This document shows positions 21,141 through 58,191 of a stretch of DNA of 64,000 nt, piece after piece; within the stretch, counting starts at the first letter, position 1, and every line of letters starts with the position of its first letter. Below the pieces are notes generated by a model. That model was not told where the DNA came from. It did no database searches and saw only the letters and a list, made by a program, of their open reading frames with translations. The translations under genes and the position numbers were made by a program. The stretch is from Escherichia phage SP27. The DNA is taken from the sequence record LC494302.1; one strand, written 5' to 3'.

Positions 21141-21383
21141 ATGATTACTTTAGAAAAACGTATCAAAGAAACTACATCGCTGGTGGAACTGTTAACAGTA
21201 CTCAAATGTAAAACAACACCATTCAGCACGCCGGACTTTATTAATATGGTTGATGTTAATGGTCGCTATCGTATCACGGTCGAACAAGGAGCGGCGAAAG
21301 TATTCAGTACTAAAAACACGAAGGAAGTGATCCACGCCGTTAATGTTAAAAAAGTAGTTGCCATTGATAGTAAAGTACTGTAA
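21141..21383 (+). CDS. hypothetical protein
   Basis: start at ATG 21141 (MITLEKRIKE). Confidence 0.5.
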   Translation: MITLEKRIKETTSLVELLTVLKCKTTPFSTPDFINMVDVNGRYRITVEQGAAKVFSTKNTKEVIHAVNVKKVVAIDSKVL

Positions 21384-21414
21384 GATAGTTACATTAACTC
21401 AAGGAGAACATGCA

Positions 21415-21999
21415 ATGCGTAATTATACTAAATTCATCCGTACACTGTCAGAAATGGAAACCAACAAAGAGATCCTTTCAGCTTGTCGGTTAGCTGGCCT
21501 GGAGATCATCGGTGCTGGTTCTTCCCGTATAGTTTTCGCTTTAAATGATCGGTTAGTGATTAAGGTCGCGAATTGTGATGCGGGTGTAGAACAAAATGAA
21601 ACTGAATGTAAGGTATGGAATTTTTTAGACTATGACCGCCCTCAGTTGAAACAGTACTTTGCAAAGGTGCATATGCATTTATGCGATCCTGATAATATGT
21701 TTATCGTTATGGATCGGTTGAGTACTGCAAGTAAAGGCAGTGTGAAGCACGTAAACGCGTGCAATGAATTAAAGTACAATATTAAACGTAATGCAATCGA
21801 CCGCCAGCACCGCTTTGCTGATGCACTACAACACGTTGATGATACATTATCAACACTAACGATAAGAGATATCAGAAAACAGAATATCGGCCAGGATCGT
21901 AATGGACTTATTAAAGTACTTGATTACGGTTTAACCAGCAATATCTGGAATCAGTACTATAAAAAGCGTGATGTGGCAGCAAGTAAGGTAACACGATAA
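21415..21999 (+). CDS. protein-kinase-like protein (putative small Ser/Thr kinase)
   Basis: IGAGSSRIVF (Gly loop), VIKV (beta3 Lys), RDIRKQNIG (catalytic-loop-like) and KVLDYG (DFG-like) in canonical order; start at ATG 21415 after AAGGAG. Confidence 0.5.
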   Translation: MRNYTKFIRTLSEMETNKEILSACRLAGLEIIGAGSSRIVFALNDRLVIKVANCDAGVEQNETECKVWNFLDYDRPQLKQYFAKVHMHLCDPDNMFIVMDRLSTASKGSVKHVNACNELKYNIKRNAIDRQHRFADALQHVDDTLSTLTIRDIRKQNIGQDRNGLIKVLDYGLTSNIWNQYYKKRDVAASKVTR

Positions 22000-32322: not shown

Positions 32323-32351
32323 TTGACAGTACTTTTCTTTAGTGCTATAGT
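32323..32351 (+). promoter_or_regulatory. internal sigma70-like promoter
   Basis: TTGACAgtacttttctttagtgcTATAGT. Confidence 0.55.
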
Positions 32352-35794: not shown

Positions 35795-36279
35795 AGTTCA
35801 GCTTAGATGCTGCATTTAAATATGTTCACAAGATAGAAACAATATACAGTACATTATGTGCAATAAAATCAGTAACAGAAGAGCTTGATGTTGGTGAAAA
35901 ATATCAGGTATGGAATAATACATTTTTAAATAAAGAACGTTGCTCTACGGGGTTTAATATTTTAACATTTAATCCCAGCAATTGTTACCCAGAGAAGCAT
36001 GAACGTTATCCGAATGACGACATGTGGTTTGAGTACAAAGAAGATTGTGATATGTCGTTCATTGAAGTTCCTGATGATTTTAATGCACAAGATTTAACAG
36101 ACGAGTGGTGGTTCCAGCAGAATTTAGTCCACGATGATATTGATTTATTTTTTTATGTAGTATTTAAAATGCTTTATCACAACAATATAGTACAAGATAG
36201 TGTATTTTTTTCATGTCTATATATTGATGATTTGTACAATGAAATTCAAATCAACATGCCCAGAACGCCTGTATCGTAA
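35773..36279 (+). CDS. hypothetical protein, paralog family C
   Basis: motif DEWWFQQNLVHD. Confidence 0.55.
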   Translation: MQYMYDLEFSLDAAFKYVHKIETIYSTLCAIKSVTEELDVGEKYQVWNNTFLNKERCSTGFNILTFNPSNCYPEKHERYPNDDMWFEYKEDCDMSFIEVPDDFNAQDLTDEWWFQQNLVHDDIDLFFYVVFKMLYHNNIVQDSVFFSCLYIDDLYNEIQINMPRTPVS

Positions 36280-36304
36280 GATATGGGCTTTTTTCGTTTT
36301 GGTA

Positions 36305-36333
36305 TTGACATAGAAGACCAAAGCTGTTATCAT
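36305..36333 (+). promoter_or_regulatory. internal sigma70-like promoter
   Basis: TTGACAtagaagaccaaagctgtTATCAT. Confidence 0.45.
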
Positions 36334-40433: not shown

Positions 40434-40811
40434 ATGGAAATAAAATATAATGAATTTTGTGCAAGGACATGGATGTACACTGGTGAGTTAGTTACGCACT
40501 CTAACTTATACAAGGGTGATTTAAACTACGCTAGGGACAAGATTTTAAAGTACTGGAATGCTGACTTTTATTTGATGGATTTTAGTACTGGGTTTCATGG
40601 GATATCTATCGAGATGCCGGACTATACAGTACTTGATGATGCTGCACTGTTCCAGGAGGCATTAGTATTTGATAAGAAGTACATCTGTACATTAGAAGAG
40701 ATGATTGAATTACAGCGTAGAATTAAATGTATTCACAGGGAATGTATAGATATCTGGTGCAGTACTGGTGAGGCCGATTTCTGGAAATTTTTTAATCTAG
40801 GAGAAGAGTGA
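40434..40811 (+). CDS. hypothetical protein, paralog family C
   Basis: start at ATG 40434 (MEIKYNEF); motif DAALFQEALVFDKKY. Confidence 0.55.
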   Translation: MEIKYNEFCARTWMYTGELVTHSNLYKGDLNYARDKILKYWNADFYLMDFSTGFHGISIEMPDYTVLDDAALFQEALVFDKKYICTLEEMIELQRRIKCIHRECIDIWCSTGEADFWKFFNLGEE

Positions 40812-41167
40812 TGGAATTTGATTTTTTAATATCAGTACATACTTTCAAGCACAGTTATCAGTACTTTTGTAATTTAAACAAAGGTGATTTAATGCACAGT
40901 GCGAATGAGTATATTCATTACACTCAGGGTAAATTTACATTCATTGATTACAGTTCATTACAGTATCCACACCAAGATATGCCGGACTATACATTAATGG
41001 ATACCGCAGAACTATTCCAAGAATCATTAGTATTTGATAAGAAGTACTTGTGTACATTTGAAGAAGTTATTGCAATACAAAATGAAATGAAAGAGTATGC
41101 TGCTTTGCATAAACCCAATTCAAGTATTAATCAAGAATACAAATTCAATTTAGGAATTCAAGAATGA
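40808..41167 (+). CDS. hypothetical protein, paralog family C
   Basis: motif TAELFQESLVFDKKY. Confidence 0.6.
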   Translation: MMEFDFLISVHTFKHSYQYFCNLNKGDLMHSANEYIHYTQGKFTFIDYSSLQYPHQDMPDYTLMDTAELFQESLVFDKKYLCTFEEVIAIQNEMKEYAALHKPNSSINQEYKFNLGIQE

Positions 41168-41523
41168 CATATGATTATTCTATGTACTATTATAAGTTAC
41201 CTAAAGGATGGGACTTGTGCTGTAATCTTATTAAGGGCGACTCGGAACATGAGTTGAGTTTATATATGCATTACAAAGATTCTTGTTTTAAATTTATTCA
41301 TGTATCACATGACGACTATGACTATGAATCTGAGAGTCTTATAGATTATACAGTACTGGACGATGGCGAACTATTTCAGGCTGCATTAGTGTTTGATAAG
41401 AATAAGTACTCCTGTACATTTGAAGAAATGGTTTCTTTGCAAAATGAAATGAAGAGATTTGAAAAAGAAAACGTATTTAATCCATCCCCATCAAGAACGA
41501 ATAATTATTATTTCAATATATGA
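41164..41523 (+). CDS. hypothetical protein, paralog family C
   Basis: motif DGELFQAALVFDKNKY. Confidence 0.6.
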   Translation: MTYDYSMYYYKLPKGWDLCCNLIKGDSEHELSLYMHYKDSCFKFIHVSHDDYDYESESLIDYTVLDDGELFQAALVFDKNKYSCTFEEMVSLQNEMKRFEKENVFNPSPSRTNNYYFNI

Positions 41524-41532
41524 GATTATAAA

Positions 41533-42024
41533 ATGACATTACAGAGTTCATTGGAAAAAGCAAAGAAGATTCATGAGTACATGAATATGGCAAAAGAAGG
41601 TTCAGTTTACGGTGTTTTCAAAGACACAAGTACTCAATATTATGTACCGGATAACCTCCTTTATAATGACTGCTCAGATACAGAAACGTGCGTACTGGAT
41701 ACAGAAACGTGTGTACTGGATACCGACCCTAATGATTATGAATGCTACATTAATATGCATAATGAGTACATGGTCTATATTAATGATACAGATACCATCA
41801 ACAGTACTGACAGCGATTCCAATGACATTATAATTCCGAGTGAAGTACTGGAAGGTCCGTGGGATAGTGAAGAGTATTACTTCCAACAAAGTACTGTATA
41901 TGATAATGAAGTACTTGATGTTATTATAATTATGTGGTACTTTAAAAGTATTGGTTCTGGGAACTTCTATTTCGATTACAAATACGTAAAGAAAACTGTA
42001 GATAACGGTATTAACAGGGGTTGA
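41533..42024 (+). CDS. hypothetical protein, paralog family C (EEYYFQ subgroup)
   Basis: VLEGPWDSEEYYFQQSTVYDNEVLDVIIIMWYFKSIGSGNFYFDYKYV. Confidence 0.65.
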   Translation: MTLQSSLEKAKKIHEYMNMAKEGSVYGVFKDTSTQYYVPDNLLYNDCSDTETCVLDTETCVLDTDPNDYECYINMHNEYMVYINDTDTINSTDSDSNDIIIPSEVLEGPWDSEEYYFQQSTVYDNEVLDVIIIMWYFKSIGSGNFYFDYKYVKKTVDNGINRG

Positions 42025-42025
42025 A

Positions 42026-42496
42026 ATGAGTTTAGAAAGAGCATTAGAGATTGCGAAGTTAATTGATTTATGCAGCAAAGAAATTGTAGCAAATTGTCTT
42101 AATGGATATCTATTCAAGGAAGGTAAATCTTATTGTCGAATGAGATACGATGACAGTAGTGAGTACATTCACATGTATGAAGAAAACTTAGATTCTTCTG
42201 AAACAACACTCAATGGGTGTGATGTTAATTTGGAAGATAATTACATGTACTTCTGTCGTGATGCTGATATTTTAATACAAGATTCTGACATTATATCTGG
42301 TGCAGCAGAGAAACATCTTCCGTATTCAGTACTGGATAATGACTGGGGAAGTGAAGAGTTCTACTTCCAGCAGAATACTATCTACGAGGAATATGTGCTT
42401 GACAAGCTTGTCATTCTGTGGTACTTTAATAATACCGATTGTCCTAGCTTCTATCTGGACTTGGATCTACTACGAGTTATTAAAGAGGATATATGA
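42026..42496 (+). CDS. hypothetical protein, paralog family C (EEYYFQ subgroup)
   Basis: VLDNDWGSEEFYFQQNTIYEEYVLDKLVILWYF. Confidence 0.65.
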   Translation: MSLERALEIAKLIDLCSKEIVANCLNGYLFKEGKSYCRMRYDDSSEYIHMYEENLDSSETTLNGCDVNLEDNYMYFCRDADILIQDSDIISGAAEKHLPYSVLDNDWGSEEFYFQQNTIYEEYVLDKLVILWYFNNTDCPSFYLDLDLLRVIKEDI

Positions 42497-42936
42497 GTTT
42501 AGCAAGTGCACTTAAACTGGCACACAAAATACATCACTTCCACGATAACATAAAAAGTGGTTTCTATGGTGATAAAGTAAGTGCATTTGGTAATGAGTAT
42601 TATCTATCAGGTATAAAGACATACTCTGATGATATTTTACTTATGGGCCATGATAAAGACAATACTATACAGTACTCTTCATGTAGTCAATATACTAGTT
42701 TTTTTGTATATATTCCAGGTACTAAGATTACGTTTGACACATCAAATACACCTGTTGACTTCGGGGTACTTGATGGCCCGTGGGGTACTGAAGAGTATTA
42801 CTTCCAACAGAGTCTTATTTTTAACCAAGAAATGCTTGATTCCTTGGTTGTTTTGTGGTACTTTAAGGAATTGAAGTTTGAACCATTTTTTCTTGACTGG
42901 GGAGCATGTGAATATTTAAGTACAGGGGATTTGTAA
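42493..42936 (+). CDS. hypothetical protein, paralog family C (EEYYFQ subgroup)
   Basis: VLDGPWGTEEYYFQQSLIFNQEMLDSLVVLWYF. Confidence 0.65.
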   Translation: MSLASALKLAHKIHHFHDNIKSGFYGDKVSAFGNEYYLSGIKTYSDDILLMGHDKDNTIQYSSCSQYTSFFVYIPGTKITFDTSNTPVDFGVLDGPWGTEEYYFQQSLIFNQEMLDSLVVLWYFKELKFEPFFLDWGACEYLSTGDL

Positions 42937-43427
42937 TGTCGTTACAAAGTGCATTGAAAGAAGCAAAGAAGATTCATGAGTACATGATTATGGTACAGGA
43001 AGGTTCAGTACCTGGGGTGTATAAAACATCTGATACTGAATTTTTTGTAAAAGACCGTGACGATTATGACGAGTCCGAGATATGTGCAGAAACATTAGTA
43101 CTGCACACTGATACTGGTGACAGTGATAACTGTGAATATCATATGTACAATCAGTACATTAGTTATTGCCGTAATGAAGATATTACCATCTACAACACAG
43201 ATAGTGATGCTGATGACACTATCATTCCTTATTCAGTACTGGAAGGACCGTGGGATAGTGAAGAATATTACTTCCAGAATAGTACGTTGTACAATGAAGA
43301 AGAACTGGATGTTATTGTGATTATGTGGTACTTTAAAAGTATTGGTTCTGATAGTTTCTATTTCGATTATGAATACGTAGAGAATACTGTAGGGGAAGAT
43401 AATGTCATTACAAAGTGCACTGGATAA
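42936..43427 (+). CDS. hypothetical protein, paralog family C (EEYYFQ subgroup)
   Basis: VLEGPWDSEEYYFQNSTLYNEEELDVIVIMWYFKSIGSDSFYFDYEYV. Confidence 0.65.
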   Translation: MSLQSALKEAKKIHEYMIMVQEGSVPGVYKTSDTEFFVKDRDDYDESEICAETLVLHTDTGDSDNCEYHMYNQYISYCRNEDITIYNTDSDADDTIIPYSVLEGPWDSEEYYFQNSTLYNEEELDVIVIMWYFKSIGSDSFYFDYEYVENTVGEDNVITKCTG

Positions 43428-43845
43428 AGCAAAAGAACTACAGGTATATATTGAAGATATCAAGGCTGGGAAGTTCGAAGAAGTATACAAAGCCGAGAAT
43501 GGTAACTACTACAAGGATAGTGATTTTACCACAACTACAGTTATTCTTGGGCTGAATTCCAAAAGTCCCGCAGATTTTTCACAATACAATCCAGATGCAG
43601 AATTTATCAGTTATGCTTATGGTGGTGAAATCCGTTTTTATAATCGCAGCAGACCTTTAAAATTGAACTTTGAAGTACTGAAAGGTCCGTGGGATAGTGA
43701 AGAGTATTACTTTCAGAATAGTACTTTGTATGATGATGAAGTACTAGATACTTTAGTTATTATGTGGTACTTTAAAAGTATTGATAGTACAAGATTTTAT
43801 TTGGATTATGAATATGTACGTGAAGCATATAAGGGCAAACGATGA
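43402..43845 (+). CDS. hypothetical protein, paralog family C (EEYYFQ subgroup)
   Basis: VLKGPWDSEEYYFQNSTLYDDEVLDTLVIMWYFKSIDSTRFYLDYEYV. Confidence 0.65.
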   Translation: MSLQSALDKAKELQVYIEDIKAGKFEEVYKAENGNYYKDSDFTTTTVILGLNSKSPADFSQYNPDAEFISYAYGGEIRFYNRSRPLKLNFEVLKGPWDSEEYYFQNSTLYDDEVLDTLVIMWYFKSIDSTRFYLDYEYVREAYKGKR

Positions 43846-44156
43846 AATTCTTATACAGTATTCAGTACATTCCTGGTACAATTAGTTTAATGTATTTCTT
43901 CGATCATGATAATTTCCAGCACCTTGCCGTTAGAAGATGTAATGAATCTTTAATGATTGAATATCTTCACGATTGTGATTATATTCCTGACTTCCTTGAA
44001 TGTGATTACAGAGATGATCATGAAACATTTCTTTTTCAGGAATCACTTGTATGGGATAAGAGAATTAATTTTTATGCTTTACTTGAGATACAAAAACAAG
44101 TGAAGTACTACTGGGATTACTTAATTACCCAAGAATATATAGAGATTGAAATATAA
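43842..44156 (+). CDS. hypothetical protein, paralog family C
   Basis: motif HETFLFQESLVWD. Confidence 0.55.
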   Translation: MKFLYSIQYIPGTISLMYFFDHDNFQHLAVRRCNESLMIEYLHDCDYIPDFLECDYRDDHETFLFQESLVWDKRINFYALLEIQKQVKYYWDYLITQEYIEIEI

Positions 44157-44629
44157 TGTACGAAAGTGATCTTAAGCACGCTGAGGAATTAGTTAATATA
44201 GTAAAGTTCTTTCAAAATAATGTAAAGTACTTAGACGACAAAGGGGCATATATTAGTACTATAAGTGTTGGTACAGATATTCTAGGATTAGGTAATGAAT
44301 ATAAGTACGAGTCCCATGATTATGATTTGGAATTCAAGTACTTCGAATGGAATCCTGGAACTTTCTATTCAATCGATGAAAGTGGGAAATATTTTGAATT
44401 CACCGAAGAAGACGTACTATTCTTAAATTCAGAAGATGCTTACTTCCAGTACAGTACTATATACCCAAATAGTGCATTAAGAGCTTTAGTAGTTTTTAAT
44501 GCATTTCTGAAAGAGAACTTTAATAATTCTATATTCATTGATTTAAATTATGTATATGAACTAAATCAGGTGATATATATGGAGTCCAGAAAAAATGAGT
44601 TACGAAAGTGCAATCAAGAAAGCAAATGA
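44156..44629 (+). CDS. hypothetical protein, paralog family C
   Basis: motif EDAYFQYSTIYP. Confidence 0.55.
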   Translation: MYESDLKHAEELVNIVKFFQNNVKYLDDKGAYISTISVGTDILGLGNEYKYESHDYDLEFKYFEWNPGTFYSIDESGKYFEFTEEDVLFLNSEDAYFQYSTIYPNSALRALVVFNAFLKENFNNSIFIDLNYVYELNQVIYMESRKNELRKCNQESK

Positions 44630-45041
44630 TATTCTAAAAGTTGTTAAGTTCTTCAAAGAAAATCCTGAATACGTAGATGATGAACGAAGAGAAGTTTCTA
44701 ATGGCACGAAGATTACAATTGATTCTTTATTTGACACTAGCAACAACAACTGTAGTACTATTGAATTAGCATACGATTATATTTCATTGAACAGAAAATA
44801 TGATGAAGTTACGATAGAGCGTCATGAGAATGAAGAATCTTTTAAAATTTCTGATATTTTATCTCTGAGTACAGAAGAAGGGTACTTCCAGGGAAGTACT
44901 GTTTATAATGAAGGAACACTAGACAATCTATGTACATTTAGTGTACTATATCAGAAGTCAGTACTGGATATATTTTATCTAGACACTGAAAAACTTGATA
45001 GGTTAGTTGATTTCGTTACTATAGAAGAGGCATCCGTTTGA
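44595..45041 (+). CDS. hypothetical protein, paralog family C
   Basis: motif EEGYFQGSTVYN. Confidence 0.55.
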   Translation: MSYESAIKKANDILKVVKFFKENPEYVDDERREVSNGTKITIDSLFDTSNNNCSTIELAYDYISLNRKYDEVTIERHENEESFKISDILSLSTEEGYFQGSTVYNEGTLDNLCTFSVLYQKSVLDIFYLDTEKLDRLVDFVTIEEASV

Positions 45042-47782: not shown

Positions 47783-48319
47783 ATGTTAGATGAAAAAATG
47801 AACAATGGAACACAATATAATCATCTTAAGTTAGATACATTCGAATCAGCTATCAGTACTGCACAAGATATAATTGATATTATCAAGTTCATTAAAGAAA
47901 ATAAGTTCAAATGTTTGAAAATACTAAATCGTTCAATGTACCGTGATAACAATATTCATGTATCAGTACGTAGACCGAAAGATAAAGAAAGTGGGAGAGA
48001 TTTCTATAACAACAGTGAGCAGTTCGAATGTGAATATGATCCAGAATTCAGAGGCGGTTTCATGTGTTACAGTATAAAGGATACCTCACACATTGAGATA
48101 CGTTCATCGAAAGGTGGCATACGTACATTAGAGTTCATTGATATAGTTTTAAATCAGGAATACTACTTTCAACTATCATTATTGTTTCCTGCATACGATT
48201 TAGGAGTTCTATTCATGTATAAGTACTTTTATGAGCACTGGAATGAAGACTTCTATCTGGACTTAGAAGATTACCAATTAGTTTGGAAAGAAATGGTAGA
48301 ACTTCGCAATCCCTCTTGA
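47783..48319 (+). CDS. hypothetical protein, paralog family C
   Basis: start at ATG 47783 (MLDEKMNNG); motif QEYYFQLSLLFP. Confidence 0.5.
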   Translation: MLDEKMNNGTQYNHLKLDTFESAISTAQDIIDIIKFIKENKFKCLKILNRSMYRDNNIHVSVRRPKDKESGRDFYNNSEQFECEYDPEFRGGFMCYSIKDTSHIEIRSSKGGIRTLEFIDIVLNQEYYFQLSLLFPAYDLGVLFMYKYFYEHWNEDFYLDLEDYQLVWKEMVELRNPS

Positions 48320-48368
48320 CACCCACCGATTCTTTGTGATATAATCCCTTTATATTAATTGTAAAGGG
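48316..48368 (+). promoter_or_regulatory. internal promoter plus stem-loop
   Basis: TTGACA 48316-48321, 18 bp spacer, TATAAT 48340-48345; hairpin CCCTTTAtattaattgTAAAGGG. Confidence 0.55.
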
Positions 48369-48378
48369 TTATAACACA

Positions 48379-48855
48379 ATGTCCAAAGACCTATCATTTA
48401 GCAATGCACAAAAAATAGCAAAAGACATTATCAGGGTTTATAAATTCCTTGCGAATGTTACTGAAGATTTTTCCGTGGGGGAACATAAAGTTATTAAACG
48501 AAATGGATACCTTTCATTTATGGATGGGTTACTCTATAGTTCAGATGAATCAACTTGTAGCATTAGAGTACTTGATGAAGTACCAAGTGGTGATTTTATT
48601 TCATACCATTTTCCAAGTTCAGATAATTTCAAATACTACAATCATCTTCTTATAAATGAAGCATTTAATACGATTGTAATTAACACTGAAGAAGAGTTCT
48701 TCCAGTACAGTACTGTGTATCCAGAGAGGATTGTTTTCAGTTCAGTGATTTTAACAGCCCTTAAAAATGAACTAAATTCCGATAGTGATCATTTCTACTT
48801 GGACCTGAACAATGTCGATTGTATTATTGAGTACCTGGAGAAAAATGGTTTATGA
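48379..48855 (+). CDS. hypothetical protein, paralog family C
   Basis: motif EEEFFQYSTVYP. Confidence 0.6.
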   Translation: MSKDLSFSNAQKIAKDIIRVYKFLANVTEDFSVGEHKVIKRNGYLSFMDGLLYSSDESTCSIRVLDEVPSGDFISYHFPSSDNFKYYNHLLINEAFNTIVINTEEEFFQYSTVYPERIVFSSVILTALKNELNSDSDHFYLDLNNVDCIIEYLEKNGL

Positions 48856-57259: not shown

Positions 57260-57673
57260 ATGAAACTGTATCATGCGAGTACTGTAAAAATTGATAACTT
57301 TTATATCCCGTATGGTGGCCTTCATATGGGAGGTAAACACAGTGCTTTAGAAGCTGCCTTACGCAAGCTGAGAAGCCCACTAAACGTTGTTGACGCATGT
57401 ACAGTATACTTGCATACCTTAGAAGTTGATGTTGATAACGTGCTTCTGTGTGAAGATTTAGGCAGTGATGATGAGTGGCGTTCACTTATTGAGAATTGCA
57501 CGGCTCAAGGTTATGATGCTGTTCAGTACAAAAATGATTACGAGCCAGACAATGTTCCTAGCTTTATGATTTGGGATACATCTAAAATTCGTATTATTGA
57601 AGTTGATGCGATGCATATGGATGAAGCTGAAATGATCATCGAAGATTTCCTTGATGAATATGAAGGTGTATAA
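57260..57673 (+). CDS. hypothetical acidic protein
   Basis: 137 aa; no family motif recognised. Confidence 0.5.
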   Translation: MKLYHASTVKIDNFYIPYGGLHMGGKHSALEAALRKLRSPLNVVDACTVYLHTLEVDVDNVLLCEDLGSDDEWRSLIENCTAQGYDAVQYKNDYEPDNVPSFMIWDTSKIRIIEVDAMHMDEAEMIIEDFLDEYEGV

Positions 57674-58191
57674 TGATTGAACCTATGACAGTACTAGCAC
57701 GTACTAAATTATTATTGAAGATTGCTGAAATATTCACTGTTCTTATGTACAATAATCAAGACATAACTGACTTAGGTATTAAGCAACCGTGGCAAATTAC
57801 AAAGTTCACGGCGTTCCACCGATTGTCATATAATGGTGAAACTGTTCTTGATTTTAATCCAAAAGCCACGTTCGTGAATTACGCTGCATTATATGGATGT
57901 AATGGTGGATTAACAAATGACTTCACTGAAATAAAAGTACAATCAGAATCATTAGAATTTAATGACTTAATATATCCAGAATTTAAGTTAACAGAAGAAA
58001 CACTATTTCAGTACTCACTAATTATAAAAGATGTATATGATCTTGAGTACTACAAAGAGTTAGTAGATATTTTTAAGAATACTCGACTTTCAAAAGATAT
58101 TGTGATATTCTGGTATGTTGAGTATGTTACAGAGGAATTGCTAGAAGAATTTCTTCTAAATATGACAGCTATAAAGGAGAAGTTATGTTAG
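57673..58191 (+). CDS. hypothetical protein, paralog family C
   Basis: motif EETLFQYSLIIK. Confidence 0.55.
   Translation: MIEPMTVLARTKLLLKIAEIFTVLMYNNQDITDLGIKQPWQITKFTAFHRLSYNGETVLDFNPKATFVNYAALYGCNGGLTNDFTEIKVQSESLEFNDLIYPEFKLTEETLFQYSLIIKDVYDLEYYKELVDIFKNTRLSKDIVIFWYVEYVTEELLEEFLLNMTAIKEKLC

Follow-up and report, generated by a model that had tools for sequence, protein, structure and literature searches.

Positions 41533-43845 of the 64-kb stretch of Escherichia phage SP27 DNA analysed here (LC494302.1; its full length is referred to as the window) hold five consecutive plus-strand open reading frames (ORFs), which we refer to as g1 to g5 and which encode proteins of 147-163 amino acids (aa) with a conserved C-terminal block. 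A sequence-only reading of the window had proposed a five-gene cluster of precisely this extent, and its coordinates proved exact. Window positions 41000-45000 are 98.3% identical in nucleotide sequence to Escherichia phage BAU.Micro_ELP-22 (ELP-22) and 90-97% identical to PBECO4, phAPEC6, G17, UB and other members of Asteriusvirus, and by sequence similarity we assign the source of the window to this genus, as a PBECO4/121Q-like E. coli jumbo phage. Asteriusvirus comprises ~350-kb E. coli and Salmonella jumbo myoviruses of the RaK2-like group. Across the window, G+C content is 30-41%, nearly every ORF lies on the plus strand, the longest ORF is 284 aa and no tRNA genes were found. The five genes are as follows:

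41533-42024, plus strand: g1, an ORF of 163 aa with an isoelectric point (pI) of 4.1 and a net charge of -20; its nearest paralog is g4, at 57-60% identity
42026-42496, plus strand: g2, an ORF of 156 aa, pI 4.1; divergent, with 29-35% identity to the other four
42493-42936, plus strand: g3, an ORF of 147 aa, pI 4.6; divergent, its start overlapping the g2 stop by 4 nt
42936-43427, plus strand: g4, an ORF of 163 aa, pI 4.1, net charge -27; the member modelled with AlphaFold
43402-43845, plus strand: g5, an ORF of 147 aa, pI 4.7; a mosaic with a C module like that of g1 and g4, overlapping g4 by 26 nt

Between neighbouring genes there is either a 1-nt gap or an overlap of 1-26 nt, and a Shine-Dalgarno-like sequence lies 5' of every one of them. 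All five proteins are strongly acidic (pI 4.1-4.7, net charge -7 to -27), and in g1, g4 and g2 the negative charge is concentrated in the variable middle of the protein (-18, -16 and -10, respectively).

The conserved block, hereafter the C module, begins at VL.[GN].W, ends at F[YF].D and is 44-48 aa long. It is located in the five genes as follows:

41845-41976, plus strand: C module of g1 (aa 105-148), with the invariant FQ encoded at nt 41881-41886
42329-42460, plus strand: C module of g2 (aa 102-145), conserved block
42766-42897, plus strand: C module of g3 (aa 92-135), conserved block
43236-43367, plus strand: C module of g4 (aa 101-144), conserved block
43675-43806, plus strand: C module of g5 (aa 92-135), with synonymous sites in common with g1 and g4

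Pairwise comparison of the five genes reveals a modular organization, in that identity is 46-81% within the C module and 12-45% in the middle region, and a repeat finder detects five copies of a 109-nt DNA segment set 437-484 nt apart. The C-terminal consensus quoted in the sequence-only reading describes g1, g4 and, very nearly, g5, but it does not describe g2 and g3, which match it at only ~46-52%. Likewise, the strong divergence that it reported for the N-terminal 80-100 residues holds for the middle region but not for the first ~25-36 residues, which constitute a conserved helix (MSLQSAL.xAKxIHxY) with 25-61% identity. Over 253 long-form members of the wider family described below, alignment entropy is 2.71 bits in the N-terminal helix, 2.46 bits in the C module and 3.45 bits in the middle, such that conservation of the helix comes close to that of the C module. 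All five proteins carry the core motif [ST]-E-E-x-[YF]-F-Q-x-S-[TL]-x-[YFH], in the versions DSEEYYFQQSTVY, GSEEFYFQQNTIY, GTEEYYFQQSLIF and DSEEYYFQNSTLY, the last of which occurs twice. Within a 33-sequence family alignment the F and Q of this motif are invariant and the S nearly so, and over the 253 long-form sequences F is conserved in 100%, Q in 95% and S in 92%.

By profile comparison, g1-g5 are a sub-clade of a large lineage-specific protein family found in RaK2-like jumbo phages, which we call the FQ-motif family. A hidden Markov model (HMM) built from g1-g5 and iterated over all plus-strand ORFs of the window converges on 32 members, which delimit the following array:

31607-53965, plus strand: FQ-motif family array with at least 32 members, all on the plus strand, defined by the iterated HMM

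A 33rd member (57673-58191), outside the array span, joins when Klebsiella sequences are added to the HMM, and ~5 more ORFs have just the motif; four of these lie farther downstream, reaching 61 kb. Overall, the array comprises at least 32-37 paralogs over ~25 kb, in long forms of 145-210 aa and short forms of 100-135 aa. Each of g1-g5 matches the family profile over its full length with an E-value of 1e-38 to 1e-51, far beyond chance, and profiles of the long and short forms align with 93.8% probability (E = 1.7e-7) over just 32 columns around the motif. The mutual scores of g1-g5 are 64-167 bits, whereas their scores against other family members are at most 47 bits, and the best paralog lies no more than two slots away for 15 of 37 members (permutation mean 4.0, maximum 13 in 2000). 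These data support the local amplification that had been suggested from the sequence, and the sub-clade scores and the proximity of best paralogs together point to local tandem duplication as the main mode of array growth.

Searches of Pfam, NCBIfam and PDB sequence profiles returned no significant match for g1-g5 or the 33 family members, nor for 20 other ORFs of the window. In the PHROG database, g1-g5 match phrog_9317 end to end (residues 1 to ~160, E = 4e-50 to 4e-65, with 8.5e-57 for g2), and their neighbours match the related PHROGs 12674, 34017, 28549 and 22855, all of which are annotated as 'unknown function'. The five proteins therefore have database entries already, under the heading of hypothetical proteins from PBECO4/121Q-like phages; however, the PHROGs split what the iterated profile and the shared motif join as one superfamily, and they come without a function, a structure or a family-level description. 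A profile search of 1.84 billion representative proteins gave 158 matches at E <= 1e-3, mostly of 120-210 aa with the rest being shorter fragments, and none was long enough to accommodate an extra domain. Ten clusters sampled from these matches consist of Asteriusvirus proteins, phage copies in E. coli assemblies and metagenome contigs, all labelled 'hypothetical' or 'uncharacterised'. Through the C module, tblastn also reaches Klebsiella phages of the genus Alcyoneusvirus, and a 30-kb locus of Klebsiella phage Muenster holds 25 ORFs that are recognized by the family HMM and contain this motif. Within the Muenster array lies a gene of a kind typical of takeover, for a putative ADP-ribosyltransferase.

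Two family members, g4 and a short form, were modelled with AlphaFold2. The g4 model, obtained with the 33-sequence family alignment, reached a predicted local distance difference test (pLDDT) score of 84.8 and a predicted template modelling (pTM) score of 0.81. It consists of a helix (residues 3-21), seven strands (28-97), three helices (99-103, 109-115, which holds the FQ motif, and 121-135), a strand (141-144) and a final helix (146-152). The model of the short form at 41164-41523 (pLDDT 85.9, pTM 0.82) has five strands, a motif helix at 67-75, a short helix at 79-82, a helix at 86-102 and a terminal strand, such that it reproduces the long-form layout minus the N-terminal helix and both modelled members share the family fold. 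Modelling indicates that the products of the genes are small, very acidic alpha/beta proteins of a single domain, in which an N-terminal helix and C-terminal helices, the latter bearing the invariant [ST]EE.[YF]FQ.S motif, flank a variable beta-sheet. Since both models form a single compact domain, the conserved 'module' and the 'variable region' are parts of one domain, and the variable part would correspond to the central beta-sheet and its loops. In a library of viral structures, all significant matches to g4 are uncharacterized proteins of RaK2-like jumbo phages, namely 121Q, RaK2 and Serratia phage BF, with weaker fold matches in GAP32, Yersinia phage fHe-Yen9-04 and SP27. Comparison of the predicted fold with solved structures gave no match.

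We next consider the age of the five genes and the selection acting on them. The same five genes occur in the same order in phAPEC6 (gp442c-gp438c), 121Q (370-374), PBECO4, ELP-22, EC.P1 and Ecwhy_1, and this order is kept in most of the 11 Asteriusvirus genomes compared. Orthologs are 85-100% identical (69% for a second allele of g5), whereas paralogs are 29-60% identical; g1 orthologs, for example, are 94-99% identical in PBECO4, 121Q, phAPEC6 and ELP-22 and 76% identical in phage A4, and those of g2 are 84-100% identical. Because ortholog identity greatly exceeds paralog identity and gene order is shared, the duplications predate the diversification of the genus, and the amplification is ancient. 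Pooled over orthologs, the ratio of nonsynonymous to synonymous substitution (dN/dS) is lowest in the C module (0.15), intermediate in the N-terminal 30 codons (0.22) and highest in the middle (0.30), where the proportion of nonsynonymous differences (pN) is 0.064. The middle region is less constrained than its flanks, yet it is under purifying selection, and no positive selection was detectable there in the ortholog comparison. That every paralog has a middle region of its own, conserved among its orthologs, argues against an active diversifying cassette and in favor of stable, distinct functions. The idea that the family is a diversifying scaffold-plus-variable-region system is not supported as a description of an ongoing process, given the purifying dN/dS of 0.15-0.30 everywhere and the single compact domain of the AlphaFold model.

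The modular pattern itself has more than one origin. When g5 is compared with g1 and g4 it reflects a true mosaic, and a test for a breakpoint at the start of the conserved module is positive in this one case; in pairs that include g2 or g3, by contrast, it reflects only stronger constraint at the protein level. Third-position identity between g5 and g1 or g4 is 0.33-0.36 over the first 36 codons and 0.28-0.29 across the middle region, for a random expectation of 0.29, but 0.71-0.73 in the C module (Fisher p ~9e-4 and 5e-6). The Nei-Gojobori proportion of synonymous differences (pS) for the same pairs is 0.38-0.41 in the C module as opposed to 0.81-0.90 upstream, and where amino acids in the g5 C module are identical, 25 of 35 codons are identical as well, compared to 16 expected from codon usage under synonymous saturation. 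The maximum chi-square method locates the junction:

43671-43674, plus strand: mosaic breakpoint of g5 relative to its paralogs g1 and g4, at the start of the g5 C module

The maximum chi-square values are 48.2 and 42.0 over all positions and 21.4 and 21.2 over third positions only (permutation p <= 0.002). Pairs with g2 or g3 exhibit no third-position heterogeneity, and their synonymous sites are near saturation. The conserved coding segments of g1, g4 and g5 have kept 75-85% nucleotide identity.

Exchange between phages is apparent at the level of alleles. Informative sites delimit one such segment in g4:

43058-43319, plus strand: PBECO4-type allelic patch in g4, surrounded by an ELP-22-type backbone

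In this patch, 31 of 32 informative sites are of the PBECO4 type and one (43265) is of the ELP-22 type, and from 43331 onward 93 consecutive sites are of the ELP-22 type. The 5' junction falls at 43019-43058, right after the N-terminal helix, and the 3' junction at 43319-43331, within the C module. Phage A4 has a g4 homologue with 97% identity in the first 60 nt and 53-70% beyond them, and g5 exists as two alleles that are 69% identical, one present in the window, ELP-22 and Ecwhy_1 and the other in PBECO4, 121Q and phAPEC6. Whole slots differ as well: Turkey3, vB_Ec-M-J and ph0011 have a short-form family member and a 61-aa ORF in place of g1, and a different 309-bp gene occupies the slot at 44156-44629 in PBECO4, 121Q and phAPEC6. 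Alleles of the member at 48379-48855 are at least 87% or 49-58% identical (31% in A4), with a distribution among phages unlike that of the g5 alleles, and more than 90% of the array aligned in only 3 of ~35 related genomes. From these sequence comparisons, the array is a mosaic between phages in which alleles of the middle segment are exchanged through breakpoints in the conserved flanks. Two other rearrangements were considered and set aside. The fourth gene of A4 has a g5-like tail suggestive of a g4::g5 fusion, but in nucleotide windows it proves to be a divergent allele of g4, with a C module at equal distance from g1, g4 and g5, and we do not use it as evidence; a block duplication of g1-g2 into g4-g5 was discounted because g2 is no nearer to g5 than to the others.

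With respect to function, the position of the array and the fate of its orthologs offer some indirect clues. In vB_Ec-M-J a direct terminal repeat of 21.5 kb is annotated, and the array starts a few kilobases (~6 kb) inside it; the terminal repeat of Sharanji is 20.7 kb. In CBB, which has 22 paralogous ORFs, the region adjoining the terminal repeat was proposed to contain early genes (PMC5259590), and the distant relative PA5oct expresses the genes of its terminal repeat early and makes use of host RNA polymerase (PMC7318152). By analogy, the five genes may belong to the early class and use host-type promoters. Three near-consensus promoters lie in intergenic gaps of the array, one of them next to a hairpin:

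32323-32351, intergenic gap: sigma-70 promoter, 11/12 with TG
36267-36288: terminator-like hairpin followed by a T-run, with the next promoter just downstream
36305-36333, intergenic gap: sigma-70 promoter, 11/12 with TG
48316-48345, intergenic gap: sigma-70 promoter, TTGACA-18-TATAAT with TG (12/12, extended -10)

These elements look like boundaries of early transcription units. The array orthologs in phAPEC6 are gp411c-gp466c, with gp438c-gp442c corresponding to g1-g5, and the virion proteome of this phage (62 proteins) does not include any gp4xx; its structural proteome contains nothing between gp347 and gp549 (PMC7247149). The products are thus not found among virion or injected proteins. 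The five genes also lack a match to a Pfam SUKH-type profile or to the SUKH fold of SUKH/SMI1-KNR4 immunity proteins. Only acidity (pI 4.1-4.7) is shared with the DNA-mimicking anti-restriction proteins Ocr and ArdA, to which no Pfam, PDB-sequence or fold match was obtained.

Based on these observations, we conclude that the array grew by local tandem duplication, with the conserved coding segments acting as homology arms. One event gave g5 its g1/g4-type C module, and further events swapped middle segments between alleles of co-infecting phages or replaced whole slots. Purifying selection in all segments implies that each paralog has a stable function of its own. Host RNA polymerase would transcribe the genes early, from a region immediately inside the left terminal repeat, and the proteins would remain in the cytoplasm, where each paralog may use its acidic variable sheet to bind or inhibit a different host target. 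Proteins of defence or housekeeping that bind nucleic acids would be the most plausible targets, and the conserved helices may supply the fold or a shared contact. Taken as a whole, an explanation in which an old tandem sub-clade, recombined at its ends, encodes early cytoplasmic binders or inhibitors of host targets seems to us evenly poised between right and wrong. Its evolutionary part alone, namely old tandem duplicates that recombine at conserved segments, we consider highly probable. Its functional part alone, that the products are early cytoplasmic binders or inhibitors of host targets, is put forward tentatively and falls somewhat short of an even chance.

Several points weigh against this explanation. 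Expression timing, cytoplasmic location and binding partners are all reached indirectly, promoter-like sites in the region are not enriched (104 found versus 119.7 expected in shuffled sequence), and no promoter-like site was found directly upstream of g1. An ortholog dN/dS below 1 in the variable region carries no codon-level signature of an arms race, and the statistics on recombination junctions rest on very few events. Acidity, moreover, is common among phage early proteins and is no pointer to a target. Finally, a model of one target per paralog leaves unexplained the invariance of EE, Q and S across proteins that are 15-20% identical, which suggests a shared biochemical activity and leaves room for a shared partner or, less likely, catalysis.

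A shared partner is the essence of one alternative, in which the EE..FQ.S motif and the conserved helices dock all members onto one machine of the host or the phage (a protease, the ribosome or RNA polymerase, for instance), while the sheet picks different clients, in parallel with the ankyrin/F-box families of poxviruses. This adaptor model would account for the (near-)invariant F, Q and S and the two conserved Glu residues in more than 250 otherwise highly divergent sequences, for the restriction of long- and short-form similarity to ~32 columns around the motif and for the presence of the same motif in phage Muenster. However, the motif lies within a helix of the fold that is predicted with very high confidence and may be structural, comprising an aromatic core residue and a helix cap, and no fold or sequence likeness to known adaptors was found. 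On balance we regard this model as unlikely. Nor do we favor the view that the family serves the phage's own programme, as transcription or replication regulators or assembly chaperones that arose as sub-functionalised housekeeping paralogs. Purifying selection in every segment and a gene order conserved over most of the genus are consistent with such roles, but phages with 91-99% identity elsewhere differ in slots that are replaced, lost or occupied by deeply diverged alleles, which is unexpected for essential factors, and the proteins are absent from virions.

A more elaborate possibility combines a shared contact with individual targets. The family would then be a modular arsenal for counter-defence or takeover with a previously unseen fold, in which the invariant EE..FQ.S helix grips a common host machine or ligand and the ~35 paralogs, by virtue of interchangeable acidic sheet cassettes, each address a target of their own; we find this doubtful. 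It is quite improbable, in our estimation, that the proteins are enzymes with a Glu-Glu...Gln-x-Ser active site and a variable sheet that confers substrate specificity, for which the conservation of polar residues across very divergent paralogs is the supporting observation.

We hold it very improbable that the array is neutral ballast tolerated by a large capsid, with the conserved block reflecting nothing but recent gene conversion. A gene-conversion-like signal in g1, g4 and g5 and frequent slot turnover fit this view, but it is largely refuted by purifying selection (ortholog dN/dS of 0.15-0.30 in all segments). Furthermore, the paralogs fold confidently in models, g2 and g3 keep the block at the protein level despite near-saturated synonymous sites, and both Escherichia and Klebsiella phage genera have retained the family. 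The motif also resembles the tobacco etch virus (TEV) protease site, ENLYFQ followed by S or G, at P6, P3, P2 and P1, as in EEYYFQNS (43260-43292) and TEEGYFQGS (44874-44906). It could accordingly be read as a 3C/TEV-like cleavage site, EE.YFQ before [GS], at which the proteins are processed. This reading draws on sequence resemblance alone (TEEGYFQGS, for example, occurs in the gene at 44595-45041 and in phage Muenster), and we judge the resemblance coincidental and the reading highly improbable, as the motif resides in a helix with a pLDDT of ~95 in both models, P1' is highly variable and no such protease was identified, whole genomes not having been searched for one. The chance that targeted hypermutation by a diversity-generating retroelement or similar system acts upstream of the conserved block is close to nil. 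Only the superficial pattern of a conserved end beside a variable body suggests it, and the ortholog comparison already refutes it, the middle being conserved (pN 0.064, dN/dS 0.30). The only repeats found are the paralogs themselves. Reverse transcriptases are usually longer than ~300 aa, and in the absence of any ORF above 284 aa none of usual length is encoded in the window. The same observations speak against other hypervariable cassette systems.

The remaining features of the region concern the neighbours of the five genes and details within them:

40808-41523, plus strand: two short-form family members of 119 aa each, upstream of g1 (HMM E = 1e-9 to 1e-15)
41677-41718, plus strand: tandem duplication in the variable region of g1, with a period of 21, 2.2 copies and 96% matches in Tandem Repeats Finder
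43842-44156, plus strand: short-form family member downstream of g5, an ORF matched by the family HMM
44156-44629, plus strand: long-form family member, an ORF matched by the family HMM
44595-45041, plus strand: long-form family member, an ORF matched by the family HMM

The 21-bp unit in g1 reads GATACAGAAACGTG[CT]GTACTG, twice over, and encodes DTETCVL twice; only one copy is present in phage A4 and several database variants, and the duplication is a slippage polymorphism within a coding loop. Two minus-strand ORFs oppose the five genes, one of 147 aa (41674-42117) that covers most of g1 and runs into g2, and one of 85 aa (43233-43490) that lies opposite the g4 C module and runs into g5. They are very likely not genes, their shared sequence only mirroring the conserved block. 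At 44881-44900, the YFQGST codons of the gene at 44595-45041 form a perfect 8-bp palindrome (GGTACTTCCAGGGAAGTACT) that is terminator-like on both strands, and in other paralogs the codon choice TAC TTC CAG nnn AGT AC gives a weaker inverted repeat. This palindrome is probably a by-product of the conserved peptide.

Window positions 5000-27000, the counterpart of the 21.5-kb direct terminal repeat annotated in vB_Ec-M-J, are richer in G+C (36-41%) and show mosaicism far above that of the paralog array. The best coverage by a single phage is at most 67%, and fragments match 223 phage records, reaching unrelated genera (Campylobacter, Klebsiella and Erwinia phages, Phapecoctavirus and Justusliebigvirus). 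Among annotated neighbours elsewhere are genes for an acetyltransferase, 'protein spackle', a Ser/Thr kinase and a zinc finger protein like DksA. A 213-aa ORF at 21358-21999 has a weak protein-kinase match in Pfam (E = 0.005, below threshold), and a Ser/Thr or protein kinase, a possible ortholog, is annotated under the 5000-27000 matches in Turkey3, Turkey5 and ph0011. The ORF possibly encodes an early host-modifying kinase.

Expanded families of small proteins are known from other large viruses. The MGF360/505 genes of African swine fever virus and the ankyrin/F-box genes of poxviruses are diverged paralogs arranged in tandem near a genome terminus, with roles in host interaction. The FQ-motif array resembles them in its terminal tandem arrangement, its variation in copy number and alleles between isolates and its growth by unequal recombination, but it has no sequence or fold relationship to them, its host is bacterial and its role in host interaction is one we only infer. 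In function the array would also resemble the polyimmunity loci of bacteria (SUKH/SMI1-KNR4 and other types), tandem arrangements of genes for small alpha+beta proteins, many of them acidic, in which every member is presumed to counter its own toxin or nuclease; this is the working model that we adopt. Tests for membership in named families were nevertheless negative. Among phages, Bacillus phage G has an expansion of ~35 zinc ribbons with a proposed role in DNA binding or as transcription factors (Iyer et al. 2021, PMC7824862). There too a jumbo phage holds ~35 copies of one small domain, yet the fold and the phage group are different and the FQ-motif family is acidic and has no metal-binding motif. 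Paralog families make up ~10% of the genes of RaK2-like phages (Simoliunas et al. 2013, PMC3622015; Buttimer et al. 2017, PMC5259590); neither paper deals with this family, with its motif and recombination or with its copy number of at least 32 per genome. Our search of the literature returned general remarks on paralogs of RaK2-like phages and nothing on this family, its motif or its dynamics.

Overall, the five-gene feature is real but fairly ordinary for a giant phage genome, where it represents a lineage-specific expansion combined with recombination-driven mosaicism; it is useful for annotation and holds little surprise for a phage genomicist. Nonetheless, ~25 kb of a 350-kb phage genome is given over to one uncharacterized protein family, which is present in jumbo phages of at least two genera under development for therapy. 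Were the arsenal interpretation true, recombination at conserved segments would reassort specificities, and the array would be a prokaryotic-virus counterpart of the poxvirus ankyrin/F-box or African swine fever virus families. Should its members prove to inhibit host targets, the array would offer a wealth of new factors for anti-defence or takeover, and the turnover of alleles and slots might help to explain differences in host range between near-identical phages.

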